Assembly (NCBI GenBank): GCA_017889265.1
Contig: JAGHEK010000013.1
Span: 1 to 35,367 of the forward strand
Direction: 5' to 3'
DNA from: Romboutsia sp.
GTDB lineage: Bacteria > Bacillota > Clostridia > Peptostreptococcales > Peptostreptococcaceae
Length of the DNA: 35,367 bases
Shown piece by piece: positions 1 to 18,229 of the stretch (the stretch's first letter is position 1; the number at the start of each line of letters is the position of its first letter). A program made the position numbers and the translations under genes. Below the pieces are notes generated by a model. The model saw nothing but the letters and a program-made list of their open reading frames with translations. It did no database searches and was not told where the DNA came from.

Positions 1-50
1 AACTTATACTACTAAATTAATAATACAATATATTTTTATGAAAATCAAGT

Positions 51-1727: not shown

Positions 1728-2837
1728 TTATTCTTCTTCATAAAATTCCATATGAACATCTCTTTTTACTATATCTTCTAGTAAATCACATATTCTTTCG
1801 TATGCATATTTTTCTTCATCCACATCAAAATACTCATCTATAGTCTCTTTAGGAACAGGGAACTCTATTTCCTTATTAGAATTATTAAATTCACAAAATT
1901 CTTCATACGTTCTAGTAAATTTTCCCGTGTTTAATAAATCATTATGCATATGATCTAATAAATCTATTGGTCTTATTATAGAACAATCTTTTTTCATAAA
2001 ATATATATCAGATATAGATGTACTATACCATATATGTATTTTATCACACACTTTTATCCAACTTCTTACAGTTTCATCTTTTATAATATGAAAATTACTA
2101 TATCTATTTTCTATATCCATTATATTCTCATCAACCGCTTCACTTGGATGTGGTCTATATATAAACTCACATTCATTTTCAACAATGTAATTTATAATCC
2201 ACTCTAATAACACTTTTCTAGTATTTTCTTCTAATTTTATCCTATCTTCAACTTCTATTTTACCATGTCTAACACTATAATACTCTTTTCTAGTACTAGT
2301 TAAATTAACCATACCAAAACTAGATATAAAAAGTATCCATTTTTTATTTTTATTAAGTCCGTATTCTACCGATATTTCTTCTTTAGTTTTATATAACGAC
2401 TCAAATCTATCTAAATCCATATCTATATTTAAACATCCAACTATCGGTGCATTTTCTTTTGAAATACCACCTTTCAAAAGCATATCTTGCATCCTCTTAC
2501 CCCAACATAAATGAATTGCATTTTTATTAATACCATCTGGAGTATGTAATTTTAGTTCATATTCATTGTTGCTAAAAATTTGTTCATACTGAAGATTAAC
2601 TATACGCTTTATCTTGCAATTAAATAATGATTTAAAAGTATCTAATTGCCATTCTTCGTAAAGATATGGAGTTAATATAGCATCTGGTTCAAAATCAAGT
2701 TTTTCTTTAGTTGCGTTATACATTCTAAACGGATCACATATATGTAATTCATGTCCTCTTCTATTCAACTCCGCTTTTAATAAATATGCATTTTGTAATT
2801 CTCTTTCCATTAACTCATAAAATAACACAAATTCCAT
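1728..2837 (-). CDS. Conserved hypothetical 369-aa protein, putative GT-B-like sugar or phospho-sugar transferase with RPHP motif; paralog of 12911..14017
   Basis: Long ORF with RBS AAAGGTAG. Well over half of positions are identical by eye to the 368-aa paralog (shared blocks ERELQNAYLLKAELN, DAILTPYLYE, KRIVNLQYEQI, NAIHLCWGK, NECEFIYRPHP, VRSWIKVCDKIH, EKYAYE). I recognised no other family signature. Confidence 0.5.
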   Translation of the reverse strand: MEFVLFYELMERELQNAYLLKAELNRRGHELHICDPFRMYNATKEKLDFEPDAILTPYLYEEWQLDTFKSLFNCKIKRIVNLQYEQIFSNNEYELKLHTPDGINKNAIHLCWGKRMQDMLLKGGISKENAPIVGCLNIDMDLDRFESLYKTKEEISVEYGLNKNKKWILFISSFGMVNLTSTRKEYYSVRHGKIEVEDRIKLEENTRKVLLEWIINYIVENECEFIYRPHPSEAVDENIMDIENRYSNFHIIKDETVRSWIKVCDKIHIWYSTSISDIYFMKKDCSIIRPIDLLDHMHNDLLNTGKFTRTYEEFCEFNNSNKEIEFPVPKETIDEYFDVDEEKYAYERICDLLEDIVKRDVHMEFYEEE

Positions 2838-2842
2838 ATATA

Positions 2843-4174
2843 CTACCTTTCAAATCTACAAAGTATATTTTCAAATATAATCTTATCACGACTATATATT
2901 TCTATCTTTTTATCAATTTCATAATTCAAATCATCAATTAACTGTTTCAATAAAATTTCTATAGGTTCTAGATAATTATCTGGTAAATTTTTTTTATCTT
3001 TAATATCCTTAATGAGACAATAGATATTGTCACAACTCTTGTACTTTAAAAATTTTTTATGACAAGATATTATTGATATAATTTGACTAATAACTTCAGA
3101 ATTTATCTTTTTTTCTTTTGTTATACTATTTAGTAAAATATCTAAATTTCTAATATTGTTATACTCCCTAGTATAAAACTGCTTCTTATAATTAAATTTC
3201 ATTCTATTATAAACATGCGGAGCATTGCACAAAATATCCATTTCAGTGATAATTTTACTTTCCAGTAAATCTACGCTACAGTTTATATATATATCCTCAA
3301 TATATTTTTTTAATTTATTTAATTTATACAAATCTCTTTTTTCATTTAGTAAGTTTATATATTTATTTATACATATTACGATATATTCTACTAATAAATT
3401 ATATAATTTAACATCTTCTATATTATTTAAAAGATTTTTAATTTCAATTAGTTCATCTGTAGTATAATTATAATTAAATTTAGTATTGTTTTCACTATCT
3501 TTAATTTCATAAGTACTTAATAGACAATAATTTTTATATCTTATGTAATCACAGCAAATAAAACTTTTTAATAGAAATAACTTACTAGAACGATGTATTA
3601 ATTCGTCAAAATAAACATTCTTACTTAAAATAAACATTCTTCTATATATATATATGTTTATATTCTCAATATCAATCTCTTTTATTAGTAATTTTTCTAA
3701 GTATTCCACTCCATTTATTATGTTATTATCTAAATAACGATCTTTACTAATAATTTCATACTTATCTTTTAATACAATATATTCATCATTCGTGTTTCTA
3801 TATTTATTAATGACTTTATAATCAACAGATAGTATTTGTAATTTATTTGACTCACATTCCTGATAATACATTTCCAATGCTTGAGATTCTAAAATATAAT
3901 TGCTATCTAAAAAAATTATATATTTACCTTTTGATAAGTTTATAGCGTCATTTTTACATTTATTTATAGTATGTTCATTTGAAAATAATATTTTTATATT
4001 TATATACTCATCAACAAAATACTTAATTTTGTTCATAAGTAGATCACTATCTATATGATTAGGTATACATAAAAATATTTCTATATCATTTAATGTCTGA
4101 TTCATAATACTATCAATACACTCAAGTAAATACTCGTCTATATTTATAACTTCAACTACAACACTTACATTCAT
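2843..4174 (-). CDS. GT-A (family-2-like) glycosyltransferase-domain protein with degenerate nucleotide-binding and DXD motifs, plus a ~200-aa helical C-terminal region
   Basis: 443 aa. The N-terminus VSVVVEVINIDEYLLECIDSIMNQTLNDIEIFLCIPNH...SKGKYIIFLDSNY follows the GT2 template (hhhhPxYN...LxSLxxQT..hEhhhVDDGS...GxYhxFhDSDD). The P-YN, DDGS and second DXD acid positions are replaced. RBS GGAGGGA. Confidence 0.55.
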   Translation of the reverse strand: MNVSVVVEVINIDEYLLECIDSIMNQTLNDIEIFLCIPNHIDSDLLMNKIKYFVDEYINIKILFSNEHTINKCKNDAINLSKGKYIIFLDSNYILESQALEMYYQECESNKLQILSVDYKVINKYRNTNDEYIVLKDKYEIISKDRYLDNNIINGVEYLEKLLIKEIDIENINIYIYRRMFILSKNVYFDELIHRSSKLFLLKSFICCDYIRYKNYCLLSTYEIKDSENNTKFNYNYTTDELIEIKNLLNNIEDVKLYNLLVEYIVICINKYINLLNEKRDLYKLNKLKKYIEDIYINCSVDLLESKIITEMDILCNAPHVYNRMKFNYKKQFYTREYNNIRNLDILLNSITKEKKINSEVISQIISIISCHKKFLKYKSCDNIYCLIKDIKDKKNLPDNYLEPIEILLKQLIDDLNYEIDKKIEIYSRDKIIFENILCRFER

Positions 4175-4188
4175 AACAGGTATCCCTC

Positions 4189-5634
4189 CTATAAATAATT
4201 TTTAATGTAATTACTGTATACTCTAAAATATGAGTTATAATTATCATCCATATTCATATACATCAAATATGATATATTCCTATTAACCAATGGGGATTCT
4301 TTAAATCTAAATTTTTTATTATTTTCTAAAATAAACAAATATTCTTTATATGCTGAATCATACATACAAGCTTCAAAGTTAAGAACTCCTAATCTGTAAT
4401 CTAAATCTTTATTGGTACTAACATCTGCCAAAGAAAAATTTCCTATGGAAATATTGCATATAAAATCTAACAAATCTTTTTCTTTAATTGAATATAAGTA
4501 AATCACTTCTGCCTTAAATACATCATTACAATAAATACTATTTAAAATAACATCCTTAATATTTTTGTAATCTTTTTGTTTAATCAGTAAAGATAAATAA
4601 ATATTATATAATTCCTCATTTTTATACTTTTCATATAGATCTTTAACTATCATAAATTTTTGTTTATCATTACGTATATATAAACCTAGTAAATAGTTAT
4701 TCTTTTCATACTCATTTTGTAGTGAATCAATATAATTTTTTATATCCCAATTGATATTAGAATTTAAAATACAGTCTAATGTAAATGTCTCATTAATACA
4801 TTTATCTATTAAGTATATATTTTTTCTGTTTTCAACAATTTTCTTATGATTATAAACATCTATGTTATTAGTAACTATAAAATCAGAATCTAAGCAACAT
4901 TCCTTTTCTAAAAATAAGTTAATATTTCTATCTAAAAAATGTTCAGTATAATAATTTACATTACTGTAATAAACAATTTTAGATCTATCTTTAAAAGGTA
5001 TCAAAGAACTTAATATATATAAATCACTATATACTAGTATAACATTACTATAATTTCTTAGTATGTACTCAACAATAACCATAATTTCACTAGAATTTAT
5101 CTCATACACATTAATATTATTTTCTTTATAGGATCTAGCATCATGTTTTAATAGATTATCATTTTTATCTATTCTTATTAAAACATTATTTTTATTTCTA
5201 ACATGTTCAAAAATCAAATCATCTTTATCTATATTAATCATTACAAAAGTATATAATTTTTCATTTAAAATATTTTCTATATCATTTTTTATAGAAACCA
5301 CTTCTTGAATTAAATCATTATCATCACTCAAAGCTATACATCTATCATAAAAATATAAAGCATCTTGTAAATTTCCCAACAGAACATTAAGATAACCCAT
5401 GTTATATAAAACATCAACATTAGAATTATCTATCTCAAAAGCCTTTAAAAAACTATCAACTGCTTCTGATAAATTATTTTCTCTAATAGCTACTATACCT
5501 TTCATAGAAAAATATGAAATATCTTCATTAGATAAAACTCCATATTTTTCAAGATATAATTTAGCATTTTCCAAATCATTTATATTAATTAAGTTTTCTA
5601 TTTCACTTTTTATTATTTCTAAATTATTTTTCAT
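4189..5634 (-). CDS. TPR-repeat protein with central alpha/beta-like region and C-terminal helical repeats; paralog of 15373..16938
   Basis: 481 aa. TPR-like helices in the N-terminal ~120 aa (AVDSFLKAFEIDNSNVDVLYNMGYLNVLLGNLQDALYFYDRCIAL). The central segment (VILVYSD...KIVYYSNVNYY...DFIVTNNIDVYN...NIYLID) alternates hydrophobic strands and helices. RBS GAAGAAGGG. Confidence 0.6.
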   Translation of the reverse strand: MKNNLEIIKSEIENLININDLENAKLYLEKYGVLSNEDISYFSMKGIVAIRENNLSEAVDSFLKAFEIDNSNVDVLYNMGYLNVLLGNLQDALYFYDRCIALSDDNDLIQEVVSIKNDIENILNEKLYTFVMINIDKDDLIFEHVRNKNNVLIRIDKNDNLLKHDARSYKENNINVYEINSSEIMVIVEYILRNYSNVILVYSDLYILSSLIPFKDRSKIVYYSNVNYYTEHFLDRNINLFLEKECCLDSDFIVTNNIDVYNHKKIVENRKNIYLIDKCINETFTLDCILNSNINWDIKNYIDSLQNEYEKNNYLLGLYIRNDKQKFMIVKDLYEKYKNEELYNIYLSLLIKQKDYKNIKDVILNSIYCNDVFKAEVIYLYSIKEKDLLDFICNISIGNFSLADVSTNKDLDYRLGVLNFEACMYDSAYKEYLFILENNKKFRFKESPLVNRNISYLMYMNMDDNYNSYFRVYSNYIKNYL

Positions 5635-5719: not shown

Positions 5720-5747
5720 CAAAAAAGAACTGTAAAAATTACAGTTC
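5720..5747 (-). terminator. Rho-independent terminator ending the module A-fliB-pse operon
   Basis: Minus-strand RNA GAACUGUAA-UUU-UUACAGUUC (perfect 9-bp stem, 5747-5727) followed by UUUUUU. It starts 8 nt after the pseI stop codon. Confidence 0.8.
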
Positions 5748-5755
5748 TCAAAAAA

Positions 5756-6796
5756 TTATTCAACCATATCAAACGATAAAGGAGTTCCTTTTTTCAAATC
5801 ATCATTAAACTTTTTACCCAAAACTTCATCATAATACTTAGTATGAAGTCCATATCCTGGTCTTATAGATCTTACATTCTCTTTAGTTATTATATCACCC
5901 TTTTTAACGTCTTTTACTATGAATAAAGATCTAGAAAACTCTCTACTTTTCATTTTCTTTTCATCTAGATCATAACTAACAATACCCATAGCTTTTTCAG
6001 CTTTTCTAACAGAATCAACCATAGCTTTAAACTCTTTTTTATCTAAAGAAAAATCTGCATCAGGTCCACCAATACTTCTGTCCAATATAAAATGTTTTTC
6101 TATAACCTTAGCCCCTAGTGCAACAGCTGTTATAGGAACCTCTATATCCATAGTATGATCAGAAAGCCCAACCGTAACACCAAATCTTTCTTTTAAATCG
6201 ACCATAGTATTTAAATTAGCATATTCTAATTTAGCAGGATACTGAGAAGTACATTTAAGTAAAATAATATTATCATTTCCTGCTTTTTTGCAAGTTTCTA
6301 CTGCTAGTTCTATATCATCTAAAGTAGCTATTCCTGTAGATATTATTATAGGTTTTCCTTTTGATGCAATATATTCTATAAGCGGTATATCGTTTATCTC
6401 AAAAGATGCTACCTTATATGCAGGTACTTCTAAATCTTCTAAAAAGTCAACTGCACTCTTATCAAAAGGACTAGAAAAACATACAAGACCTAAACTTTCT
6501 GCATATTCTTTTAATTCTTTTTGCCATTCCCATGGAGTATATGCTTCCTTATATAATTTATATAAAGTAGTTCCGTCCCAAAGTGTACCTTGGTTTATTT
6601 GAAAATACTCATTATCACAATCTATAGTTATAGTATCTGCTGTGTACGTTTGTAATTTTATTGCATCAGCTCCACATTCTTTAGCTGCTTTTATAGTTTC
6701 TTTCGCTGTGTTTATATCATGTCCATGATTAGCAGATAATTCTGCTATTATAAAACAAGGTGATTTATCATTTATCTTAAAATTTCCTATATTCAT
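5756..6796 (-). CDS. pseI: Pseudaminic acid synthase (NeuB family)
   Basis: 346 aa. NeuB signature CFIIAELSANHGHDINTAKETIKAAKECGADAIKLQTY and a C-terminal SAF-like domain (VKDVKKGDIITKENVRSIRPG). Sits in an operon with pseB, pseC and pseG. Confidence 0.85.
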   Translation of the reverse strand: MNIGNFKINDKSPCFIIAELSANHGHDINTAKETIKAAKECGADAIKLQTYTADTITIDCDNEYFQINQGTLWDGTTLYKLYKEAYTPWEWQKELKEYAESLGLVCFSSPFDKSAVDFLEDLEVPAYKVASFEINDIPLIEYIASKGKPIIISTGIATLDDIELAVETCKKAGNDNIILLKCTSQYPAKLEYANLNTMVDLKERFGVTVGLSDHTMDIEVPITAVALGAKVIEKHFILDRSIGGPDADFSLDKKEFKAMVDSVRKAEKAMGIVSYDLDEKKMKSREFSRSLFIVKDVKKGDIITKENVRSIRPGYGLHTKYYDEVLGKKFNDDLKKGTPLSFDMVE

Positions 6797-6806
6797 AAAA
6801 AACTCC

Positions 6807-7817
6807 TTAATAATTTAAAATGCTATCTACTATATTCTTGACACCATCATCATGTATAACATTTTTACTTAAATTATTCATTTTATACCTAGCTTCTTTA
6901 TTATCAATTAAAAAATTTACTTTTTCTAATAATTTATCTTTTCTTAAATCACTAAAATATCCCATATTAATCATAATACCTTTTTTATCAAACTCACAGG
7001 CTATATTTTCTTGATTTTCAGCTTGAACTATCAAAATAGCAGGGACTCCCACTTTACATAACTCATAAGCAGTACTTCCAGATGCAGATATAGCTATATC
7101 ATTATTTTTCATAATTTCAGAAATATTATCAGGGTTATATATTAAGTTTATATTATCATATTTTTTAGATATTTCCTGAATTTCATTGATACATTCAAAA
7201 GACTTACCAATTATCACATTGATATTTATGTTTAATTCTTTTATAGTATCTAGAATAAACGGAGTAAAATTATTTATATCACTTCCACCCATTGTAACAA
7301 GTATATTTTCTACTTTTTCTTTGACTCTAAAATTAAAGTCCTTTCTAAACTCCTCCCTAAGAATACAGTACCGACTACCTAATAATAATTTAGTGTCTTT
7401 ATCGATTAATTTATAATCTAAATTATTCGCATATATATTTCCATTTATTATTATATCACTAGGATAATTATATAAAGAATTATCGTCTATAGAGATAAGT
7501 ATCCTAACATATTGCTTAATTTTAAATAAATAATCATTACTTAGATTATATGAATCTGTTATGACACAATCTATATCATTATCTTTTATTATTTTTTCTA
7601 TTTCCAATATTTCGTCATCTAAATTATTAGAATTTATATTTATAAATTTGATACCTTGATTTATAAATATATCATTTACTTCTTTGCAAAATTTGGATAT
7701 AAAAAAAACTTCTATGTTTCGTTCTAAAAGTTCTTTTGCTATAGCTATGCACCTCATTATATGACCCATACCTATATTATTTCCACCATCAGCTCTTATA
7801 CCTATTGATTTAATCAT
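6807..7817 (-). CDS. pseG: UDP-2,4-diacylamido-2,4,6-trideoxy-beta-L-altropyranose hydrolase (PseG-type, GT-B fold)
   Basis: 336 aa. N-terminal IGIRADGGNNIGMGHIMRCIAIAKEL is the PseG signature (RAD...G.GH..R). Its start overlaps the upstream stop by 8 nt. No GNAT (PseH) domain is fused to it. Confidence 0.75.
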   Translation of the reverse strand: MIKSIGIRADGGNNIGMGHIMRCIAIAKELLERNIEVFFISKFCKEVNDIFINQGIKFININSNNLDDEILEIEKIIKDNDIDCVITDSYNLSNDYLFKIKQYVRILISIDDNSLYNYPSDIIINGNIYANNLDYKLIDKDTKLLLGSRYCILREEFRKDFNFRVKEKVENILVTMGGSDINNFTPFILDTIKELNININVIIGKSFECINEIQEISKKYDNINLIYNPDNISEIMKNNDIAISASGSTAYELCKVGVPAILIVQAENQENIACEFDKKGIMINMGYFSDLRKDKLLEKVNFLIDNKEARYKMNNLSKNVIHDDGVKNIVDSILNY

Positions 7818-8682
7818 TTATATATTCCTCTATAGAATAATCTTCTATTAGTAAAATGCTATCTTTCAATTTTAAATATAAACATTCTTTGTTATTAACT
7901 ACTTTTCCAATTTCTACATCATTATAATTTATAATATTACTATAATCTAAGCTTGCCTTCCATATTATAATTTTTTTATTATCATCAATTAAAAATGCCC
8001 CAGGATATGGTTTTGAAACAGCTCTTATAAGATTATAAATTTCTTTACCTGATTTATTTATGTCTATTAATCCATCTTCTGAAGTCCTTTTTCCAAAATA
8101 ACTTCCTTTGGATAAATCCTGCTTAATACCTTCATAAAACTTATCATTTTGTATTATTTTTATAGCTTTTAAAACTATACTAGGATATATATTTTTTACT
8201 TTTATTAATAAATCTTCTATATAATCATTTTCTTTTATGCATACCTTTTCTTGACATATTATATTACCAGTATCTATACCTTCTTCTATAAAATGAACTG
8301 TAACTCCCGTTTGTTTTTCTCCATTTATAATAGCCCAATTAAGTGGAGCTCTTCCTCTATATTTTGGTAAAATAGAAGCATGGGTATTTATACATCCATA
8401 TTTAGGTATACTAATGATTTCTTTCTTTAATATTTGTTCAAAATTAACAGACACTATTAAATCAATATTAAGTTTTTTTATATCTTGCAAAAATAAAGCA
8501 TTATTAATATTTCTTTCTTTATATAATACCAAATTATATTTATTAGCTATATCATCTACACCTCTATACCAATCATTAGCAGTATCTGTTATAACTACTC
8601 CTACAACTTCAATATTATTTTTTATAAGATTTTCTAGTGTTATAGCTCCTAATTCATGCCCTCCCATAAATAATATTTTCAT
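7810..8682 (-). CDS. Fmt/ArnA-like N-formyltransferase (probable sugar N-formyltransferase)
   Basis: Motif CINTHASILPKYRGRAPLNWAIINGEKQTGVTVHFIEEGIDTGNII carries the N-x-H...D catalytic triad and the SLLP-type loop of formyltransferases, followed by an Fmt_C-like tail. I chose the ATG at 8682 (RBS GAAGGTG 6 nt upstream). The track's 8691 start is a GTG inside that RBS. Confidence 0.8.
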   Translation of the reverse strand: MKILFMGGHELGAITLENLIKNNIEVVGVVITDTANDWYRGVDDIANKYNLVLYKERNINNALFLQDIKKLNIDLIVSVNFEQILKKEIISIPKYGCINTHASILPKYRGRAPLNWAIINGEKQTGVTVHFIEEGIDTGNIICQEKVCIKENDYIEDLLIKVKNIYPSIVLKAIKIIQNDKFYEGIKQDLSKGSYFGKRTSEDGLIDINKSGKEIYNLIRAVSKPYPGAFLIDDNKKIIIWKASLDYSNIINYNDVEIGKVVNNKECLYLKLKDSILLIEDYSIEEYIND

Positions 8683-8683
8683 A

Positions 8684-9430
8684 TTATTCACCTTCAGTCT
8701 TTAGCGCTTTTTGTTTTATATGGCTATTTATATTTTCTAGTTGTTTATTTGTTATCATAACTTTTAATATATCATCTAAATAAAAATCTTTACTGTCTAT
8801 ATATAAAAAATCGTATATTCTTTTTATAAGTTCAAAGTCTTCCTTGGTATCAAGTGTTAATCTATATTTTGAATAATCAATATCATTTTTATAATAATAT
8901 ATATCCTTTTCATTTTCATAAATATATGGTGTTACATGCTCTTTTTGATAATCTTTGTTTGCATTTTTGTATGCATTCTCTAAAGCATTAAAATCAAAAA
9001 TTTCAGTATCTAAACCTCTTGGATAAGTTCTATTATGTATATCTCCTGCATTAGTAACTAATCTATAATTACTTTTTAAGTAAAAACCTAACATTTCATC
9101 TATAACTAAATGGTCTATTAAAGGACAATCAGATGTTATTCTAATAACTATATCCGCTTTATTTTCCTTTGCACACAAATAATATCTACTTAAAACATCA
9201 CTTTCACTACCTCTAAAATATTTACATCCTATTTTTTTACATTCATCCACTATCTTATCATCTTGTTCTAAATCAGTAGTCGCTACTATAACTTCATCTA
9301 TATATTTAGATTTTTTAACTCTATCAACGACATGATTAAGAACAGTTTTACCTTTTAAATCTAATAAAACTTTCCCTGGTAACCTTGTTGAACCAACTCT
9401 TGCTTGTATTATAGCTACTATTTTTTTCAT
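8684..9430 (-). CDS. SpsF/FlmC-type cytidylyltransferase, probable CMP-pseudaminic acid synthetase (PseF role)
   Basis: 248 aa. N-terminus IVAIIQARVGSTRLPGKVLLDLKGKTVL is the CTP_transf_3/SpsF signature. It is the only nucleotidyltransferase in the pse operon. Confidence 0.6.
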   Translation of the reverse strand: MKKIVAIIQARVGSTRLPGKVLLDLKGKTVLNHVVDRVKKSKYIDEVIVATTDLEQDDKIVDECKKIGCKYFRGSESDVLSRYYLCAKENKADIVIRITSDCPLIDHLVIDEMLGFYLKSNYRLVTNAGDIHNRTYPRGLDTEIFDFNALENAYKNANKDYQKEHVTPYIYENEKDIYYYKNDIDYSKYRLTLDTKEDFELIKRIYDFLYIDSKDFYLDDILKVMITNKQLENINSHIKQKALKTEGE

Positions 9431-9437
9431 AAAAATC

Positions 9438-10625
9438 CTACTTTCTATAATAACCTAAAACTTTATTAACAGCATTTATCACATCATAAAAATCATCATT
9501 GCTCATTCCAGGATATAAAGGAAGAGTAATCATAGAATTATATAACTCTTCAGCATTTGGACAAAGACCTTTTTTATAGTCAAGGTTTTTATAATAAGGA
9601 TGCAAATAAACAGGTAGATAATGAACATTTACACCTATATTTTCTGCAAATAATGCCTCAAATATTTCTTTTCTACCAACCTTAAATTTATCTAAATCAA
9701 GTTTCATTATATATAAGTGCCTGCTTGTATCCGAAAATTCTCCTTCCTTTTGAATAATTACTCCATCTATTTTAGATAAATATTCATTATACATTCCAAC
9801 AAGTTCTTTTCTTCTTTTTATAAATCCATCTAACTTATCCATTTGAGTAATACCAAGAGCACATTGCAAATCAGTTATTCTATAGTTATACCCTAAATCA
9901 ATCTGTTCATAATACCAAGGTCCTTCATCTTTATTTTCCATAAACTCAGTATTTCTAGTTATTCCATGAGTTCTAAACAAAATCAATTTTTCATATAAAT
10001 CTTTTCTATTAGTAGTTATAATTCCACCCTCTGCAGTTGTAACAGTTTTCACAGGATGAAAACTAAACTCAGTCATATCAGAAATACTTCCAATAAACTT
10101 TCCTTTATATTTAGTGCCTAATGCATGAGCGGCATCTTCTATAACTATTAGATTATACTTTTTTGCCAATTCCAAAATAGGATCTAAATCAACAGATTGA
10201 CCAGTAAAATGAACTGGTATTATAGCTTTAGTTTTATGAGTAATCTTTTTTTCTATTTCATTTACATCTATATTATAAGTTTCTTTATCTATATCGACAA
10301 AAACAGGCTTAGCACCACAGTAGAGTATACAATTAGCAGATGCTGCAAAAGTCATAGGTGTAGTGATAACCTCATCATCCTCTTTTATCCCTGCCGAAAG
10401 ACAAGCTATATGAAGTGCAGCAGTACCATTGGATACTGCTACAGCATACTTTGAACCAACATAATCAGCAACCTTTTTCTCAAACTCCGAAACTGTAGGT
10501 CCTGTAGTTAAATAATCTCCATTTAATATATTTACTACTGACTTTATGTCATCCTCATCTATAACTTGCTTACCATATGGTAAAAATTTATTTCTTACAG
10601 GAGTTCCTCCATTTATAGCTAACAA
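9438..10625 (-). CDS. pseC: UDP-4-amino-4,6-dideoxy-N-acetyl-beta-L-altrosamine transaminase
   Basis: 395 aa, full-length DegT-family protein. Has LPYGKQVIDEDDIKSVVNILNGDYLTTGP...AVAVSNGTAALHIA and the PLP-lysine motif FSFHPVKTVTTAEGG. Lies directly downstream of pseB. Confidence 0.8.
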   Translation of the reverse strand: MLAINGGTPVRNKFLPYGKQVIDEDDIKSVVNILNGDYLTTGPTVSEFEKKVADYVGSKYAVAVSNGTAALHIACLSAGIKEDDEVITTPMTFAASANCILYCGAKPVFVDIDKETYNIDVNEIEKKITHKTKAIIPVHFTGQSVDLDPILELAKKYNLIVIEDAAHALGTKYKGKFIGSISDMTEFSFHPVKTVTTAEGGIITTNRKDLYEKLILFRTHGITRNTEFMENKDEGPWYYEQIDLGYNYRITDLQCALGITQMDKLDGFIKRRKELVGMYNEYLSKIDGVIIQKEGEFSDTSRHLYIMKLDLDKFKVGRKEIFEALFAENIGVNVHYLPVYLHPYYKNLDYKKGLCPNAEELYNSMITLPLYPGMSNDDFYDVINAVNKVLGYYRK

Positions 10626-10639
10626 ACAAAATCACTCCT

Positions 10640-11659
10640 TTATTTTTCTAGCTTATATATACCTAGTTTTTCCATTTCATTTCTTAAATCTTCAATACTC
10701 AACCACTCAGCATTATTTCCAGAATTATATTCAAACCCATTTTCTATAGGTTTACCGCCTTCTGTAAAATAACTCTCCTTATTCCACCAATCAAAATGTG
10801 GATATATTATATAGTGTTTTTCGTATTCATAAGTAGTTCTAGAATCATCTTTAGTAACCATCACTTCGTGAAGTTTTTCACCTTCTCTTATACCTACATG
10901 CTTTAATTTGCATCCAGGTAACATAGCTTCTGCTAAATCAGTTATCTTAAAAGAAGGAATTTTTGAAATATAAGTTTCTCCACCTTTCGACTCTTCCAAT
11001 GCCTTTAAAACTAAATCTATACCTTCTTCAAGGCTTATCCAAAATCTAGTCATATTAAAATCAGTTATAGGAAGTTCATCTACTCCTTTTTCTATTAAAT
11101 CCTTAAAAAACGGTATTACAGAACCTCTACTACCTGCTACATTTCCGTATCTAACTACCGAAAAAATAGTTCCTTTATCTGCTGCATAAGCATTTGCCGA
11201 AATAAAAAGTTTATCCGATACTAACTTAGTTCCTCCATATAAATTAATTGGATTAACTGCTTTATCAGTAGATAATGCTACAACCTTTTTGACTTTTCTA
11301 TCTATTGCTGCATCTACTACATTTTGCGCTCCGTTTATATTAGTCATTATAGCTTCAAAAGGATTATATTCACAGGCAGGTACTTGCTTCATCGCAGCAG
11401 CATGAACTACATAATCAACTCCATCAAATGCTCTATATAGTCTATTTTTATCTCTTACATCACCTATGAAAAATCTAAGCTTAGATAATTTTTCTGGCAT
11501 TTCTATCGATATTTCTTTTTTGAATAAATCTTGCTTAAATTCATCTCTTGAAAAAATTATTACTTTTTTAGGAGAATATTTTTTTAAAATCATTTTAGTA
11601 AATGATTTACCAAAGCTTCCTGTTCCTCCTGTTATAAGTATTGTTTTATTATTTAACAT
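10640..11659 (-). CDS. pseB: UDP-N-acetylglucosamine 4,6-dehydratase (inverting)
   Basis: 339 aa. Motifs KTILITGGTGSFGKSF, IIFSRDEFKQ, LRFFIGDVRD, HAAAMKQVPACEYNPFEAIMTNINGAQNV, VVALSTDKAVNPINLYGGTKLVSDKLF. This is the classic PseB/FlaA1 pattern. Confidence 0.9.
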   Translation of the reverse strand: MLNNKTILITGGTGSFGKSFTKMILKKYSPKKVIIFSRDEFKQDLFKKEISIEMPEKLSKLRFFIGDVRDKNRLYRAFDGVDYVVHAAAMKQVPACEYNPFEAIMTNINGAQNVVDAAIDRKVKKVVALSTDKAVNPINLYGGTKLVSDKLFISANAYAADKGTIFSVVRYGNVAGSRGSVIPFFKDLIEKGVDELPITDFNMTRFWISLEEGIDLVLKALEESKGGETYISKIPSFKITDLAEAMLPGCKLKHVGIREGEKLHEVMVTKDDSRTTYEYEKHYIIYPHFDWWNKESYFTEGGKPIENGFEYNSGNNAEWLSIEDLRNEMEKLGIYKLEK

Positions 11660-11677
11660 TTATATCACTTCCAAATT

Positions 11678-12895
11678 TTATTTTCCTATCATTAATATCA
11701 TATGATTTATTGTATTTTGATTATTGTCTTTCAAATATTCATATATTCTATTGTTAAGTGTACTATCGTGCAATAAAGCTTTGCTATAATTTTGTATTAA
11801 AGAAACTAGTCTTTCTATATTCATATCATTTTTATAATAAGCACACATACCTATAATATTTAATTTTACTATAACAAAATTAACTATCAAGTTCATATAA
11901 GATAATATTATATTACCTTTATTGTTATATGGAAATAAATTGTTAAATATATAATTTACTAAATAATTTTCATATATATACTCTTTGTCTTTTATAAATT
12001 CTTCGTATGTTCCATTAATAGTATCTATAAATTTATTTCTAGAATTTTCTATGTTATCTATATACAATTCTAAACCTTCAATCATATGTTGTATATTTTC
12101 TCTATATCTTTCATTAAACATAGATCTATTTGGTATAATATTATTCGATAATAAAAATAACAAAGAAAATTGTGCTTCTATTGTATTATCTATACTTATC
12201 TTTTCTAATATATTGTTATAGTATCCTCTGTTTATATTAATATTATATTTATCTATTATACTCAAAATATTACATTCCTCAATAGTATCTAATTCATTAA
12301 AAAATAAACCTAGTATTATTAATCTTTCCTCTATCACAAATTTTCTATTTTGAAGTAATGTTATAGAAAATTCACGAAGTTCATAAAAATATTTTTCTAA
12401 AATATTTTTACTATTTATAGAATGTATATTTTCAGATATCATTATTTCAGATAATTCTTCTTCAACTAACTCAAATTCCATCATATTTTCATTCAATAAA
12501 ACTAATCTTGCAGCTTCTATACAAGATAAAGTTAAAGCTCCTTGAATAACACCATCTACACAATTATATGCTCTTGGATAACTTCTACAAGTATAACACA
12601 TACTATCTTCCCCTAATATACTATATATGCTACATAAATTATTTTCATCTAAAAAAACACATTTATTGTCGTATAATTTAAACCTTGCAAAATTATAATC
12701 ATCAGTTGCTTTCCTGTTCCTAGAAGTGTGTTGTTGTAATTTTTTCCTCATATTTATATTTTTGCATTTAATATACTTTTTATAAGTTTTTTTATCTATA
12801 GTAATATCCCATCCTTTACAACATGTGTCTTCACAATTACTTCCTATACATTTAAATTTATCAAAATACTGTGGTTTAAGTATTTTATATCTCAT
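11678..12895 (-). CDS. fliB: Flagellin lysine-N-methylase (FliB family)
   Basis: 405 aa. N-terminus FDKFKCIGSNCEDTCCKGWDITIDKKTYKKY matches the Salmonella FliB cysteine motif (C-x-GS-x-C-x-D-x-CCKGW-x-IT-x-DK-x-T-x-KKY). Further Cys blocks follow (NKCVFLDENNLCSIY, CYTCRSYPR). Size matches FliB (~400 aa). Confidence 0.8.
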   Translation of the reverse strand: MRYKILKPQYFDKFKCIGSNCEDTCCKGWDITIDKKTYKKYIKCKNINMRKKLQQHTSRNRKATDDYNFARFKLYDNKCVFLDENNLCSIYSILGEDSMCYTCRSYPRAYNCVDGVIQGALTLSCIEAARLVLLNENMMEFELVEEELSEIMISENIHSINSKNILEKYFYELREFSITLLQNRKFVIEERLIILGLFFNELDTIEECNILSIIDKYNININRGYYNNILEKISIDNTIEAQFSLLFLLSNNIIPNRSMFNERYRENIQHMIEGLELYIDNIENSRNKFIDTINGTYEEFIKDKEYIYENYLVNYIFNNLFPYNNKGNIILSYMNLIVNFVIVKLNIIGMCAYYKNDMNIERLVSLIQNYSKALLHDSTLNNRIYEYLKDNNQNTINHMILMIGK

Positions 12896-12910: not shown

Positions 12911-14017
12911 TTAATCGTCATAAAAATTCATCTTTGTATCTTTGATAACTATATCTTCAAGCACATCACAAATCAATTCATATGCATATTTTTCTTTATC
13001 TATATAAAAATTTTCTAGTATTAAATTTTCATCAATAGGAAATTTGGTTATATTATCATTATCATTAAATTGCTTAAATCCTTCATAATCAGTTATAAAA
13101 TTTCCATCATTAGTTAAACCGTTATGCATCCATTCAGCTATAGGTATTGGTCTAAGTATAGAGCAATTTTTTTTCATAAAATATATATCAACTATCGAAG
13201 TACTTATCCACGTATGTATTTTATCACACACTTTTATCCAAGATCTAACCGAATCATTTTTTATTATATGGAAATTTTTATTATTTTCCTGAATAGAATA
13301 TATTTTTTTATCTAATGCTTCTGCTGGATGAGGTCTATATATAAACTCGCATTCATTATCTGATATATATTTTTCGATCCACTCCAATATTATATTTCTA
13401 CTAGTTGTATCAACTTCTATTCTTTCATTTATTCTATCATTTCCAAAACGAATAGCATTATATTTTTTTCTCATTTCACTTAAATTAACCATTGCAAAAC
13501 TCGAAAGAAATATTATCCATTTTTTGTTGGTATCCAAATCATACTCCATCGCAATCTCATCTCTTTTTTTAAAAACACTATTAAATCTTTCTCTATCCAT
13601 GTCAACATTCATAGATCCAGTTATTATACAATTTTCTTTAGGCACCCCATTTTTCACCATATTATCATACCACTTTTTACCCCAACACAAATGAATAGCA
13701 TTTCTATTTAATCCTTTAGGTATATGAAAGCCTATTTCATTATGTCCTTTAGTCAATATTTGTTCATACTGTAAATTTACAATTCTCTTTATTTTAGTAT
13801 CAAATATTTCTTTGAAAATCATTAACTGACCATCCTCATATAGATATGGTGTTAAAATAGCATCTGGAGTAAATTTTAATTTTTCTTTAGTTATATTTAT
13901 CATATAAAATGGATCACAAATGTATAAATTATGTCCTCTTTTATTAAGTTCTGCTTTTAGCAGATATGCATTTTGTAATTCTCTTTCTGTACACTCATAA
14001 AATAATACAAAGTCCAT
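12911..14017 (-). CDS. Conserved hypothetical 368-aa protein, putative GT-B-like transferase with EDG and RPHP motifs; paralog of 1728..2837
   Basis: RBS AAGGAG. E61-D62-G63 (YLYEDGQL) and H230-P231 (FIYRPHPAEA). Tail motif VRSWIKVCDKIHTWISTSIVDIYFMKK resembles the C-terminal half of CMP-sugar or CDP-alditol dependent GT-B enzymes. Confidence 0.5.
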   Translation of the reverse strand: MDFVLFYECTERELQNAYLLKAELNKRGHNLYICDPFYMINITKEKLKFTPDAILTPYLYEDGQLMIFKEIFDTKIKRIVNLQYEQILTKGHNEIGFHIPKGLNRNAIHLCWGKKWYDNMVKNGVPKENCIITGSMNVDMDRERFNSVFKKRDEIAMEYDLDTNKKWIIFLSSFAMVNLSEMRKKYNAIRFGNDRINERIEVDTTSRNIILEWIEKYISDNECEFIYRPHPAEALDKKIYSIQENNKNFHIIKNDSVRSWIKVCDKIHTWISTSIVDIYFMKKNCSILRPIPIAEWMHNGLTNDGNFITDYEGFKQFNDNDNITKFPIDENLILENFYIDKEKYAYELICDVLEDIVIKDTKMNFYDD

Positions 14018-14027
14018 ATAAACTCCT

Positions 14028-15353
14028 TTATAAATTTAGTAATATATTTTTAAATTTATCCTCCAAAAAATTATAATAATTTAACTTTTCATTTATAGAA
14101 AATTCTATATTTTGAATAAGAATATATAGGTTATCCTTAATAGCATCAATATCACCAATAATTACATCTGAACATTCATTAAGATATTTTTTCAGATTGT
14201 CATAACTTTTATATTTTTCAAAATATTTATTGCTAGACAGAAGCTCTTCTAAGACTCTTCGGTCATCTTTTGATAATATTTTATTTTTCTCTATATCATT
14301 AATTATATTAGTTACAGTGTATATATCGTTATAGTGATTTTTATACGAGTTTAATAAATTATTCTTGGTTCTTTCATATAGTATAGGAGAATCTATCAAT
14401 ATTTCGCTTTTTATTTCAATATCTATAAGTTCTTGTTTTTGAGACATATTTTTTATATCATCTATATATTTACTTGCTTTAATCATATCGTCTAAATCAT
14501 AGTTTAATTTCAATTGTTCAACAATACCTTCTATTATCTTAAACATATCATCAAGAATATTATGACATATTCTCAAATCTATAGTTATGCAATCAAAGTA
14601 TATGTTTTTTAATTTATTTAATAATTCAAATCTATATTTTATAGCATTATATCTTGTATAATAATTATCCTTGTATATATTTTTATATACTTTTATATAT
14701 TTTATACTGTTTGATAAATACTGTATTTTATTTACTTTGATTAATGTTTCTAAGATAAATGTATAACAAAAATTAGGAAATTCTTCATTAAAGTATATAT
14801 TTTCTTTTTTTAAAAAACTTTTACTATATACATACATATTTATATCATATATTTCTAAATCTTTCGCTTTGAGCTTAGAGTAAAATTCAGTTCCTTTATA
14901 TAACCCCTCATTTATAAATCTATTTTTATTGGTAAAATCTATTTGCTTTACAACTTCTGTTGAATACTCGTGCATTGTTGATACTTTTTCTGGATTGTAT
15001 GAACAATCAAAGGTTAATATTTCTGATTTAAATATTTCTATATTATTATATAACTCTTCTAATGCATTCTGCTTAAATAAAGACATTCCATCACAAAAAT
15101 ATATATATTTACCAGTAGATAAATCTATCGCCTTATTCTTTAATTTATTTATATTATCATCTTCTGATGTCAATAAAGTAATATTCTTATATTTTTCAAT
15201 ATAATTTTGTAATAAATTAATATTATTGATATTACTTCTTGGAATGCAAATTATTATTTCATATGAATCTAGTCTTTGATTTAAAATGCTTTCGATACAA
15301 TCAAAAATAGTGTCATCTATTCTTACAATAGTTAGTACAACTGTAAATTTCAT
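14028..15353 (-). CDS. GT-A (family-2-like) domain protein with degenerate motifs plus helical C-terminal region; paralog of 2843..4174
   Basis: I chose the ATG at 15353 (MKFTVVL...) because AAAGGAGA lies 4 nt upstream. The track's 15386 start would overlap the upstream gene. Sequence FTVVLTIVRIDDTIFDCIESILNQRLDSYEIIICIPRSN...STGKYIYFCDGMS shows CIP in place of DDGS and DGM in place of DXD. Confidence 0.55.
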   Translation of the reverse strand: MKFTVVLTIVRIDDTIFDCIESILNQRLDSYEIIICIPRSNINNINLLQNYIEKYKNITLLTSEDDNINKLKNKAIDLSTGKYIYFCDGMSLFKQNALEELYNNIEIFKSEILTFDCSYNPEKVSTMHEYSTEVVKQIDFTNKNRFINEGLYKGTEFYSKLKAKDLEIYDINMYVYSKSFLKKENIYFNEEFPNFCYTFILETLIKVNKIQYLSNSIKYIKVYKNIYKDNYYTRYNAIKYRFELLNKLKNIYFDCITIDLRICHNILDDMFKIIEGIVEQLKLNYDLDDMIKASKYIDDIKNMSQKQELIDIEIKSEILIDSPILYERTKNNLLNSYKNHYNDIYTVTNIINDIEKNKILSKDDRRVLEELLSSNKYFEKYKSYDNLKKYLNECSDVIIGDIDAIKDNLYILIQNIEFSINEKLNYYNFLEDKFKNILLNL

Positions 15354-15372: not shown

Positions 15373-16938
15373 TTATATACTTTCAACTAGTACCTTATAA
15401 TTTTTGTAGTATTCTTTATAGTTATCATTCTGATGCATATACATTAGATATGCTATATTTCTATTTGATATAGGTGAATTTATCAGGTTATATTCACCGT
15501 CTATCATTTTTAAATACATTTCATAAGAAGCTGTGTATTTACTAGCTTCAAAATTTAAAATGGCTAATCTATAGTCAATACAATCATCAGAATAAACGTC
15601 TGCTAGCGAAAAATTATGTATAGATATATTTATGATAAATTCCAACAAGCTAAAATTTTTTAAAGAATATAAATATAATATTTCAGCTAAATATATTTTT
15701 TTACAATATTTACTTTTAAGCATCGTGTCTATAATTTTTTCGAATTTTCTATTTCTTAATAATATAGAAATATAAATATGATAAATTTCTCTTGTTTCAT
15801 ATTCTTTATATAAATTTTCACACAATTTTTCTAATTCTTTTATATTGTAGTTTTTAAACCCTATGTCAAAAATCTTCATCATATACTTACTTTGATTATA
15901 TTCCTCATAATTTTCTAATTCTCTTATAAAATATTTATCGTTGGTATCAAAATACTTGTCGTTTAAAATTCTATCTGTAGTAGCATCTTTGTGTAATTTC
16001 TTATCTATAAAGTACATGTTATTTCTATTCTCAATAATTTTCTTATAATTATAAAAATTGATATCATTAGTAACTATTAAATCTGCATTTTTACAACATT
16101 CTTTTTCTAAAAACAAATTGACATTTCTATTAGTATAATATTTTAAGTCTGTATAATAATTAATATTCTGATAATATATAACTTTTATTTTATTTTTAAA
16201 CTTCATTATCAAATCCTGTATATTTACATCATTATATATTAACACTATATTGTCATAATTTCTTAAAATATATTCTATAATTAACTCTACTTTATTTGAG
16301 TTTACTTCATAATTTTTGATATTTGTATTATCTAAGTATAAATTTTCTTTGTCTATATTATCACTATATCTAACTTTTATAAAAATATTCCCACTATTTC
16401 TAGTATGATCAACTAAATTATAGTCATTAAACGAACCCAACATCAAAAAAGTAAATTTTTTATCTGGTAAATTATATACTATTTTTTTCTTTATATTTTC
16501 AATTTCATTTAATATATTTGTATCTTCTGTTATACTTAAACACCTATCATAAAAATATAGAGCTTCCTTAAGATTTCCAAGCAATATGTTTAAATATCCC
16601 ATATTATATAAACTATCAACATTATATTCATCAATTTTTAGAGATTCTAAAAAACAGTTTAATGATTCTTCTAAATTATTTTCTTTAAGACAAAGTATTC
16701 CTTTAAATGAATAGTACTTATCATCACAACCAATATTGTATTTATAACTTTCTAAATATTTTTTAGCTTCTTCTAATTCATTGCTATTTATACAATTTTC
16801 TATAATTTTTTCTAATTGATAACCAGTATAATTATCCATATAATTATACTCTGCTTTATTAGTATATTTTAATATTATACTTTTTAACTCTTCATCTTGA
16901 CTTAAAATAAGATTTCTTATTTTATTTAAATTTTTCAT
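15373..16938 (-). CDS. TPR-repeat protein; paralog of 4189..5634
   Basis: I chose the ATG at 16938 (MKNLNK...) with RBS AGAGGGA 5 nt upstream. The track's 16953 start is a TTG overlapping that RBS. TPR block LESLKIDEYNVDSLYNMGYLNILLGNLKEALYFYDRCLSI is nearly identical to copy B. Confidence 0.6.
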   Translation of the reverse strand: MKNLNKIRNLILSQDEELKSIILKYTNKAEYNYMDNYTGYQLEKIIENCINSNELEEAKKYLESYKYNIGCDDKYYSFKGILCLKENNLEESLNCFLESLKIDEYNVDSLYNMGYLNILLGNLKEALYFYDRCLSITEDTNILNEIENIKKKIVYNLPDKKFTFLMLGSFNDYNLVDHTRNSGNIFIKVRYSDNIDKENLYLDNTNIKNYEVNSNKVELIIEYILRNYDNIVLIYNDVNIQDLIMKFKNKIKVIYYQNINYYTDLKYYTNRNVNLFLEKECCKNADLIVTNDINFYNYKKIIENRNNMYFIDKKLHKDATTDRILNDKYFDTNDKYFIRELENYEEYNQSKYMMKIFDIGFKNYNIKELEKLCENLYKEYETREIYHIYISILLRNRKFEKIIDTMLKSKYCKKIYLAEILYLYSLKNFSLLEFIINISIHNFSLADVYSDDCIDYRLAILNFEASKYTASYEMYLKMIDGEYNLINSPISNRNIAYLMYMHQNDNYKEYYKNYKVLVESI

Positions 16939-17006: not shown

Positions 17007-17039
17007 AATAAAAAAGAGATAAAGTTTTGCTTTATCTCT
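17007..17039 (-). terminator. Rho-independent terminator of the flagellin gene
   Basis: Minus-strand RNA AGAGAUAAAG-CAAAA-CUUUAUCUCU (perfect 10-bp stem, 17039-17015) followed by UUUUU. It starts 9 nt after the flagellin stop. Confidence 0.8.
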
Positions 17040-17047
17040 TATGATTA

Positions 17048-18229
17048 TTAGTTTAATAATTGCATTACACCTTGTGGTTGTTGCTTAGCTTGAGCCGCCA
17101 TTGATTGAGATGCTTGAGTTATTATATTATATTTAGATAATTTAATCATTTCTTTAGCAACATCTACATCTCTAATTCTTGATTCTGCAGCAGTTAAGTT
17201 TTCAGTTGAAGTAGACAAGTTCGCAGAAGTATACTCTAATCTATTTTGTTGAGCCCCGAACTGAGATCTAGCAGTGTTCATTTCCTTTAATGCTGCATCA
17301 ATTCTAGTCATAGATTGCTTAGCTATTTGATGATTAGTTACACCTAAAGATGTAGTTTGACCAGTTGATGTAGAAACTCTAAGATCTTTTAAAGATTCTC
17401 CTATACCTGCTAAGTTTAAACTTTCAACATCTCTAGTTTCTAAATTAGCCCCAGCTTGAATTTTGACAACTTCTGGATCCTTATCATTATTTACTATTTT
17501 ACAGTTACCAGTAGTTAAAACACATGCTGATCCAGCTTTTCCACTACCAGCGCTTGTTAATTTATACATATATGAACCATTATCTGCTATTGCTAATTCT
17601 TTTGTTACTTTACTAGTTAATTTACCTGCTGTATCTTTATATAGTTGAACTAATTTAGAACCATTAGAATTTATAGCTTGAGTACCTTTTTTATAAACTT
17701 TATCACCTGTAGATGTTTCACAACCATATTGTTGATCATAAACCCCTGCTACAGTAGTTCCATCAGATTTTCTAACTACCATAGCATTAAATCCTGCAGA
17801 GTTAACATCTTTTTCTCCAACTAATAATTCTTTTTCATTGAATTTAGTTTCTTCAGCTATTTTTCCTAACTCCTCACCTAATTGAGCTAATTCATTGTTT
17901 ATCTTTTCTCTATCATCAGCAGTGTTAGTATCATTAGCCCCTTGAATAGTTAACTCTCTCATTCTTTGAGCTATATTAGTAGCTTCTTCTAAAGCACCTT
18001 CTGCAGTTTGTATCATAGATATACCATCTTGAACGTTTCTATCTGCTTGTTCCATACCTCTTATTTGAGATCTCATTTTTTCAGATATTGCAAGTCCTGC
18101 AGCATCATCAGCAGCCTTGTTTATTCTAAGACCTGTTGATAATTTCTCCATTGAAGCTGATTGTAATGCAGTATTTTTTGCCATTTGATTTACTGCGATA
18201 TTGGCATTAATATTAGTATTTATTCTCAT
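17048..18229 (-). CDS. fliC: Flagellin
   Basis: 393 aa. Conserved N-terminus MRINTNINANIAVNQ...LSTGLRINKAADDAAGLAISEKMRSQIRGMEQA...IQTAEGAL and C-terminus FGAQQNRLEY...NLTAAESRIRDVDVAKEM...QA. The central variable region is rich in Ser, Thr and Lys. Confidence 0.95.
   Translation of the reverse strand: MRINTNINANIAVNQMAKNTALQSASMEKLSTGLRINKAADDAAGLAISEKMRSQIRGMEQADRNVQDGISMIQTAEGALEEATNIAQRMRELTIQGANDTNTADDREKINNELAQLGEELGKIAEETKFNEKELLVGEKDVNSAGFNAMVVRKSDGTTVAGVYDQQYGCETSTGDKVYKKGTQAINSNGSKLVQLYKDTAGKLTSKVTKELAIADNGSYMYKLTSAGSGKAGSACVLTTGNCKIVNNDKDPEVVKIQAGANLETRDVESLNLAGIGESLKDLRVSTSTGQTTSLGVTNHQIAKQSMTRIDAALKEMNTARSQFGAQQNRLEYTSANLSTSTENLTAAESRIRDVDVAKEMIKLSKYNIITQASQSMAAQAKQQPQGVMQLLN

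Follow-up and report, generated by a model that had tools for sequence, protein, structure and literature searches.

The 35,367-nucleotide stretch of Romboutsia sp. DNA analysed here (the window) carries a flagellar glycosylation island, with all genes of the region on the minus strand. Two paralogous genes in it, copy A (12911..14017, minus strand, 368 amino acids, aa) and copy B (1728..2837, minus strand, 369 aa), lie beside pathways for two nonulosonic acids (NulOs), of which one is pseudaminic acid (Pse) and the other is legionaminic acid (Leg). Both proteins belong to the family TIGR04396 and share a near-invariant RPHP motif, and the model of copy A has a GT-B glycosyltransferase fold. 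We conclude that copies A and B are very probably GT-B transferases dependent on Pse or Leg activated with cytidine monophosphate (CMP), and that they probably serve flagellin glycosylation. An original prediction, made from the sequence alone, had proposed both open reading frames (ORFs) as flagellin NulO transferases independent of Maf proteins, and the two ORFs are indeed present where it placed them.

Family, fold and the RPHP motif

Copies A and B align from end to end without a gap, at 59% identity (E = 9e-168). Their family had been called unrecognised, but both pass the cutoff of the NCBIfam model TIGR04396 ("surface carbohydrate biosynthesis protein"), at 145.3 and 139.7 bits against a cutoff of 125. 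Copy A covers positions 2-363 and copy B positions 2-366 of the 427 in the profile, and all 67 aligned homologs match the same model. Pfam gave nothing significant for either copy, the weak match to Epimerase_2 (PF02350) standing at E = 0.046, so that profile comparison yielded a family model from NCBIfam and none from Pfam. An exhaustive profile search of bacteria and archaea places 703 clusters (50% identity) in the family at E ≤ 1e-30, and 1388 at E ≤ 1e-10. We found no paper that mentions the accession TIGR04396, and one that uses the family name, in passing.

The clearest indication of function comes from a sister family, NF046086 ("BFO_1060 family glycosyltransferase"). Copy A matches this model at 74.1 bits (E = 1.1e-20), short of the 200 bits set as its cutoff, and for copy B there is no match at E ≤ 1. 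The model is also matched by 61 of the 67 TIGR04396 homologs, the best at E = 2e-34, which makes the two families clearly homologous. In Tannerella forsythia, deletion of BFO_1060, Tanf_01245 or TFUB4_00887 removes the terminal Pse or Leg derivative of the S-layer O-glycan, the mature CMP-sugar is still in the nucleotide-sugar pool of the mutants, and Pse and Leg enzymes fail to complement one another (Tomek et al. 2017, PMC5420450). These phenotypes are genetic evidence for a donor-specific NulO transferase in the sister family. The window proteins resemble the T. forsythia enzymes in their homology (E = 1e-20 for copy A), GT-B type fold, HP motif and gene position beside Pse or Leg biosynthesis. 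Where T. forsythia has strain-specific Pse and Leg variants, the window has one copy per pathway, with putative specificities. Unlike the window proteins, the Tannerella enzymes are about 445 aa long and act, in a Gram-negative organism, on N-acetylmannosaminuronic acid (ManNAcA) of a general protein O-glycan; the window proteins are shorter and sit in a flagellar operon with tetratricopeptide repeat (TPR) and GT2-like partners.

The two copies belong to a short subclade of TIGR04396. They end 12-15 residues beyond the core, whereas members of about 430 aa continue with an amphipathic C-terminal tail of 75-100 aa. The flagellar clade and the Terrisporobacter proteins both lack this tail. A Pfam scan of longer members (478-530 aa) for informative fusions, for example to a TPR domain, found none. 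TIGR04396-like stretches also occur in two giant proteins, two of them in P0172 (1053 aa) and three in P0183 (2663 aa); these proteins may be NulO transferases or polymerases made of several modules.

The AlphaFold2 model of copy A, for which the alignment of 67 sequences was used, has two Rossmann-like domains and high confidence (predicted local distance difference test score, pLDDT, 95.1; predicted template modelling score, pTM, 0.91). Compared with the Protein Data Bank (PDB) by Foldseek, it gave 122 matches at E ≤ 0.001, and the best 50 of these are GT-B proteins only. UDP-N-acetylglucosamine (UDP-GlcNAc) 2-epimerases lead (NeuC 5xvs, E = 3e-8; 1f6d), followed by TagF (3l7k, E = 7e-7), TarL and Bcs3; the epimerases and TagF/TarL span E = 3e-8 to 4e-6, with TM scores of about 0.5-0.6 and identities of 11-14%. 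None of GT38, GT52, GT80, GT99, GT107, GT140 or GT118 is among the best 50 of the 122. Structural comparison thus bore out the GT-B fold, while the sialyltransferase-like families suggested beforehand (GT80, GT52, GT38, GT99) did not appear among those 50 and TagF, the alternative named at the time, did. Sequence and profile searches of the PDB with the family profile returned nothing better than E = 0.13.

Translation confirms the sequence FIYRPHP(S/A)EA, with H230-P231, in both copies. The RPHP codons lie at 13325..13336 in copy A (R228-P229-H230-P231) and at 2145..2156 in copy B, both on the minus strand. Across the 67 homologs R228 is kept in 66, with lysine in the remaining one, P229 in 65, H230 in all 67 and P231 in 65. 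A (K/R)XHP motif is conserved in the sialyltransferases of GT29, 38, 42, 52 and 80 and in the retaining Kdo transferases of GT99 and 107, where the lysine or arginine and the proline hold the cytosine ring of CMP (Kimber and colleagues, PMC12887879). Because the RPHP of the copies is near-invariant and matches this motif, we read it as the same cytidine-binding element. Copies A and B are its only carriers ([KR]xHP) among window ORFs of at least 100 aa.

GT38, GT52, GT80, GT99 and GT107 share with the window family the motif and a CMP-ulosonate donor, the latter as proposed here; GT140 has a variant form of the motif, and the Pse transferase KpsS1 (GT118) likewise takes a CMP-ulosonate. GT80, GT52 and GT38 are also GT-B folds. 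There is, however, no profile-level sequence similarity between the window family and these sialyl and Kdo transferases, and their D/E-D/E-G motif is absent from it. The original prediction had seen such a base motif in copy A; the letters it read, E61-D62-G63 in copy A and E-E-W in copy B, are correct by alignment, but the match is fortuitous. Positions 61-63 are variable, glycine is outside the five commonest residues at 63, and nowhere in the protein does an aligned [DE][DE]G triplet occur in five or more of the 67 homologs. The argument from a spacing of about 168 residues to the HP motif falls with it. Invariant in the alignment are R12, E13, E85 (in NLQYEQ), W112, D139, S172, W213, Y227, H230, E233, W260, W270, T273 and P290. 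Judged by conservation and by position relative to the strands of the model, the catalytic acid/base is more likely to be E13, E85 or D139.

Genomic setting of TIGR04396 and two other activities

We surveyed TIGR04396 loci in one genome per species, with the window's own proteins as seeds and a radius of 10 kb. The 58 loci recovered are mostly from Clostridia, with others from Terrisporobacter, Sulfurovum, Vogesella, Aeromonas simiae, two bacilli and a spirochaete; the closest belongs to an uncultured Peptostreptococcaceae metagenome-assembled genome (68% identity). A synthase of the NeuB/PseI family lies within 10 kb in 40 of the 58, and 46 have a NulO pathway gene of some kind. Flagellin, FliB and the TPR protein are found at a single locus. 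In Terrisporobacter the gene adjoins a complete Pse cluster and other glycosyltransferases (GT2, GT-B), and in Halodesulfovibrio it adjoins Leg genes, Wzz and a priming phosphotransferase. A single pathway can also have three to seven or more paralogs beside it in a tandem array (L020, L004). TIGR04396 is thus a general NulO-associated GT-B family, and its flagellar setting is a specialised offshoot. In one of these arrays, on a 548-kb metagenomic contig (L004 383-11098), at least seven TIGR04396 paralogs or fragments are interspersed with GT2-like genes immediately upstream of a Leg pathway, with no flagellin within 10 kb.

This setting bears on two other activities that the structural matches bring to mind. 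The copies could be GT-B epimerases or hydrolases that modify a nucleotide sugar during NulO biosynthesis, like NeuC, LegG or PseG, and transfer nothing. The leading Foldseek matches, NeuC included, and the faint Epimerase_2 match in Pfam point that way. Islands with complete canonical Pse or Leg gene sets, however, additionally encode PseG or an Epimerase_2 protein, the T. forsythia knockouts still make mature CMP-sugar, and arrays of many paralogs per pathway better fit linkage-specific transferases. We regard such an activity as highly improbable.

We think it just as improbable that the copies are phosphotransferases of the TagF/TagB kind, which would use a CDP-activated donor to attach a phospho-linked group, as in the Clostridium difficile type A flagellin locus. 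TagF, TarL and Bcs3 are among the best structural matches, TagF-type enzymes bind a cytidine nucleotide too, and a TagB superfamily domain was at one time ascribed to the T. forsythia relatives (PMC5420450). Yet neither TagF/TarL/TagB nor the epimerases come nearer than 11-14% identity, although they are the nearest solved structures; PF04464 has no Pfam match at E ≤ 1 and PF02350 a marginal one. No scanned ORF matches an enzyme of CDP-glycerol or CDP-ribitol synthesis (TagD, TarI or TarJ type), and the sole cytidylyltransferase is of the CTP_transf_3 (CMP-ulosonate) type and lies within the Pse operon. The linkage of the family to NulO synthase genes is strong, and what the knockouts of the relatives lose is the NulO itself. 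Phenotype and gene context together argue for NulO transfer over both activities. The proposal of a CMP-nonulosonate transferase recognised by its HP motif is therefore upheld by the GT-B fold, the near-invariant RPHP, the T. forsythia homology and the linkage to NulO synthases.

A three-gene cassette in flagellar islands

In the direction of transcription the window reads flagellin, TPR protein, GT2-like protein, copy A, FliB, PseB, PseC, cytidylyltransferase, formyltransferase, PseG and PseI, and then, past PseI, another TPR protein, another GT2-like protein, copy B, LegB and a truncated LegC. Terminator-like hairpins were found by a terminator scan directly 3' of flagellin (17014-17040) and of PseI (5725-5749). 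They suggest a layout of two operons, each comprising a TPR/GT2-like/TIGR04396 cassette and one NulO pathway, Pse in the first and Leg in the second. A promoter scan gave matches no commoner than in shuffled sequence. The paralogs had been described as closing their modules; read along the transcript, they precede the sugar pathways. Behind the second module stand LegB and the truncated LegC, genes of the Leg pathway, and not Pse genes.

In cassette 1 the TPR protein (15373..16938, minus strand) is 521 aa long from its ATG and matches TPR repeats only in Pfam; the GT2-like protein (14028..15353, minus strand) is 441 aa long from the ATG used by its orthologs and matches PF00535 weakly (38 bits). 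The mechanical ORFs of these two genes begin at TTG codons (16953 and 15386) that are probably too far upstream, since orthologs use the internal ATG, and the ATG starts at 16938 and 15353 abolish an apparent 14-nt overlap between them. Cassette 2 has a TPR protein of 481 aa (4189..5634, minus strand; Pfam TPR repeats) and a GT2-like protein of 443 aa (2843..4174, minus strand; PF00535, 32 bits, degenerate motifs). Within the window the two TPR proteins are 46% and the two GT2-like proteins 32% identical.

The flagellin gene (17048..18229, minus strand), recognised by NCBIfam flagellin models, encodes the presumed final acceptor. Directly downstream of copy A lies FliB, a flagellin lysine-N-methylase (11678..12895, minus strand; NF038110, 295.4 bits against a cutoff of 85), followed by the Pse operon (5756..11659, minus strand), which encodes PseB, PseC, a CTP_transf_3-type cytidylyltransferase, a formyltransferase, PseG and PseI. 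PseB, PseC, PseG and PseI score above the cutoffs of NCBIfam equivalog models, so that these enzymes and a cytidylyltransferase do stand next to flagellin, as first read. The formyltransferase (7810-8691) occupies the slot that PseH has in relatives. On the Leg side, LegB (738-1718, minus strand) matches TIGR04180 at 529.7 bits, and legC (114-722, minus strand) retains its N-terminal 201 codons only, with the match to TIGR04181 confined to positions 1-193 of the 359 in the profile.

The break in legC is evident by comparison with a sister strain, whose LegC is intact at 385 aa. The gene stops after codon 201 at ...GCYSFN, and window positions 1-113 are unrelated, foreign DNA, which opens with a GC-rich, hairpin-like sequence. 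Three independent assemblies (L005-L007) stop at the same base about 41 bp beyond the junction, and L014 stops 16 bp beyond it. The break looks like a mobile-element insertion, and with it the window strain may not produce legionaminic acid.

The order flagellin, TPR, GT2-like, TIGR04396 recurs in close relatives at 45-94% identity (L001, L009-L012, L018, L077). One further island (L078) begins inside its first cassette and has its second in view, after the 3' end of a gene encoding 369 aa and after FliB. The three cassette genes are always inherited together in this Peptostreptococcaceae clade. L077 has one cassette and Pse only; L001 has one cassette and Leg only, and so it appears does L018, an island known from seed matches only. 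L078 has two cassettes (the first only partly in view) with Pse and Leg, as does the window with its broken legC, and the sister strain, on a 715-kb contig, has three with Pse and Leg. Cassette number therefore equals NulO pathway number in four of five islands.

Copy A is about 93% identical to its sister-strain counterpart, copy B is 96% identical to that of sister cassette 2, and the TPR protein of cassette 2 is identical to its own. Between non-orthologous cassettes identity falls further: the TIGR04396 proteins share 56-77%, the TPR proteins 40-71% and the GT2-like proteins 24-33%. The third sister-strain cassette (L012 14014-17894 and L076; proteins of 475, 428 and 369 aa) lies between cassette 2 and LegB, and is absent from the window strain. 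In the same sister strain a resolvase and an IS605 OrfB are inserted between csrA and fliS (L009 1613-3332).

Adjacency cannot be used as a firm guide to donor specificity, and we rejected it as such: orthologs of cassette 1 (68-73% identical) precede Pse genes in three islands and Leg genes in L001, and in the sister strain two pathways stand against three cassettes. Even among near-identical strains the Pse pathway varies in its N-acyl step. In place of the window's formyltransferase, the sister strain carries a PseH-like GNAT acetyltransferase (L009 15341-15793); a third island has a hexapeptide transferase, a short-chain dehydrogenase/reductase and a thiolase (L010 12911-15460), and a fourth a short formyltransferase and a PIG-L deacetylase (L011 14588-15956). 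Since these genes differ between the window and the sister strain while copy A is about 93% identical, the data suggest strain-level variation in Pse derivatives with a tolerant transferase. A 368-aa gene after LegI in relatives, which we had suspected of being a further paralog, proved to encode a WbuX-type amidotransferase.

Our search for Maf covered the window proteins and the related islands. The Maf domain PF01973 has no Pfam match at E ≤ 1 in copies A and B, both TPR proteins or both GT2-like proteins, none at E ≤ 10 in 18 homologs of the TPR protein, and none recorded for the called genes of the related islands. Among the scanned window ORFs no Maf model of NCBIfam was matched either, in agreement with the original reading that no ORF here encodes a Maf. 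We also considered as a hidden Maf the 716-aa protein after PseI in L077 (17982-20132), and set it aside, as it has no Pfam match and neither a GxGPS nor a (K/R)XHP motif. This protein ends a single-cassette flagellar island, and to the eye its N-terminus resembles a GT2 protein.

With 17 homologs, the TPR protein's family is a narrow one. In an AlphaFold2 model of the cassette 1 protein (pLDDT 86), TPRs occupy residues 44-161 and are followed by one central alpha/beta domain (168-330) and, at the C-terminal end, by helical repeats. Foldseek matched the model to generic TPR proteins only (Tom71, APC/C, the TPR domain of OGT) and left the central domain unmatched; hhalign found no relationship of this domain to the TIGR04396 profile (probability 0.2%), and the homolog alignment and a motif scan showed no invariant histidine and no (K/R)XHP motif in the TPR protein. 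The GT2-like proteins, for their part, match PF00535 weakly (32-38 bits). Aligned with canonical GT2 proteins of a neighbouring locus and an SpsA sequence, those of every cassette lack PxYN, DDGS(T)D and the second, metal-binding aspartate of DXD; the first aspartate is kept in most, and one protein has no aspartate there at all. They are also hypervariable: positional orthologs share 24-33% identity even where the neighbouring TIGR04396 proteins share 68-73% (L001, L012, L077, L078). By their sequence motifs, the cassette GT2-like proteins may be pseudo-enzymes. By motif and by identity, TIGR04396 is the only cassette component with a nucleotide-binding signature under strong constraint.

Proposed transfer to flagellin

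We propose that copies A and B would act as metal-independent GT-B transferases whose donor would be a nonulosonic acid activated with CMP. With copy A at the head of the Pse operon and copy B at that of the Leg operon, each probably uses the sugar of its own operon. R228 and P231 would hold the cytosine and H230 would contact the phosphate, as in other (K/R)XHP enzymes, and an invariant acidic residue at the interdomain cleft (E13, E85 or D139) would probably be the base or nucleophile. The TPR and degenerate GT2-like proteins would most likely be the parts that recognise flagellin, and the sugar would go directly onto flagellin serine or threonine in the cytoplasm, without Maf or FlmG. For this direct transfer, with the TPR and GT2-like proteins as recognition partners, our confidence is tentative and somewhat short of even. 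In the flagellins of Campylobacter, Helicobacter, Aeromonas, C. botulinum and Caulobacter, NulO is linked directly to serine or threonine. We favour direct transfer because of this linkage, because the GT2-like proteins are degenerate and fast-evolving, and because the membrane-type tail is missing.

Alternatively, the transferase may cap a glycan that is already there. The TPR and GT2-like proteins would then form a split O-glycosyltransferase of the GmaR/CD0240 kind that sets a primer hexose or N-acetylhexosamine on serine or threonine, to which the CMP-Pse/Leg-dependent enzyme adds NulO. The co-inheritance of the three genes, the first DXD aspartate retained in most GT2-like proteins and the sugar acceptor of the T. 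forsythia enzymes all speak for capping, as does the non-flagellar setting of the family in 57 of 58 species loci, of which the two inspected gene by gene are polysaccharide loci. Moreover, the combination of GT2 and TPR has been used to recognise flagellin glycosyltransferases in Clostridium surveys (PMC13317340). The loss of PxYN, DDGS(T)D and the metal-binding aspartate in every cassette, and of any aspartate in one, tells against it, and divergence to 24-33% identity suggests relaxed catalytic constraint. The direct serine/threonine linkage of the flagellins named above is a further point against a primer sugar. We rate capping only slightly below direct transfer, and likewise short of even.

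It is also conceivable that the copies transfer NulO to a glycan of the cell wall or S-layer, and that flagellin is glycosylated by a Maf or FlmG whose gene lies outside the window. TIGR04396 is mostly non-flagellar, the window ends inside the Leg cluster, and the Maf search was limited to the window and the related islands. The genes lie, however, between fliC and fliB and are apparently co-transcribed with the NulO pathway in five islands (the window, L001, L009/L012, L077 and L078), with L018, seen through seed matches only, as a sixth. These flagellar islands have no polysaccharide export or polymerase genes and no Maf domain, and one partner protein has TPRs, the module by which FlmG and Maf-1 bind flagellin. 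We consider a target other than flagellin improbable.

Several observations weigh against our reading of direct, flagellin-directed NulO transfer by TIGR04396 proteins. By profile score the window proteins are homologs, not members, of the BFO_1060 family, copy A lying far under the NF046086 cutoff (74 against 200 bits) and copy B giving no match. The top structural matches of the model are UDP-GlcNAc 2-epimerases and TagF/TarL, not sialyltransferases, at a TM score of about 0.55. By analogy with the characterised T. forsythia relative, which transfers onto ManNAcA, the acceptor could be a sugar. Fifty-seven of the 58 species loci have no flagellin within 10 kb, and the Terrisporobacter and Halodesulfovibrio loci, those inspected gene by gene, are polysaccharide loci; taken with the ManNAcA precedent, this makes the default acceptor of TIGR04396 probably a sugar and not a protein. 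Tail-less short forms occur in a Terrisporobacter polysaccharide locus too. The GT2-like proteins mostly keep one DXD aspartate, and GT2 with TPR is a hallmark of Gram-positive flagellin O-glycosyltransferases. Finally, the sister strain has three cassettes for its two pathways.

The proposed system resembles Maf in its flagellar glycosylation islands next to Pse or Leg pathways, in its presumed job and in the several paralogs that are common per island, and flagellin recognition by an adaptor, either a TPR domain or GlfM, is known for Maf as well. Maf itself (PF01973/DUF115) is unlike the window proteins, being about 600 aa long with a central DUF115 and unrelated in fold and family, and the adaptors here would be a TPR protein of 480-520 aa and a GT2-like protein in place of a TPR fusion or the 89-aa GlfM. 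FlmG of Caulobacter and Brevundimonas, compared here by architecture only, is a Maf-independent flagellin Pse/Leg transferase whose TPR part binds flagellin and whose GT-B part selects Pse or Leg. FlmG is, however, one alphaproteobacterial polypeptide of 596 aa, with N-terminal TPR and C-terminal GT-B, whereas the window has separate genes with a GT2-like gene between them. The TPR domain of FlmG and GlfM with Maf-2 are the analogues of the partners we propose (PMC7591256; bioRxiv 10.1101/2023.12.03.569772).

Maf-independent transfer of Pse or Leg to flagellin is already known from FlmG (PMC7591256), so that the original prediction was not new as a concept. What appears to be new is a TIGR04396 enzyme in a duplicating three-gene cassette, within flagellar islands that show no Maf domain. 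It is tempting to speculate that this cassette represents a third class of flagellin "sialyltransferase", beside Maf (with or without GlfM) and FlmG. In such a class TIGR04396 would transfer directly, a TPR protein with half a GT-B domain and a dead GT2 pseudo-enzyme would recognise flagellin and its target sites, and each cassette would handle one NulO. We put this forward as a possibility that is rather less than even.

There are few transferases for Pse and Leg, and they are wanted both for glyco-engineering and as anti-virulence targets. If TIGR04396 were assigned as a family of CMP-Pse/Leg transferases, hundreds of surface-glycan loci would be annotated, and the flagellar cassette would offer a simple, soluble and reconstitutable test system. 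A recent Clostridium survey attributes NulO transfer to Mafs and leaves the TIGR04396 family unmentioned (PMC13317340). The cassette described here would correct the working assumption of such surveys that flagellar Pse and Leg islands rely on Maf.

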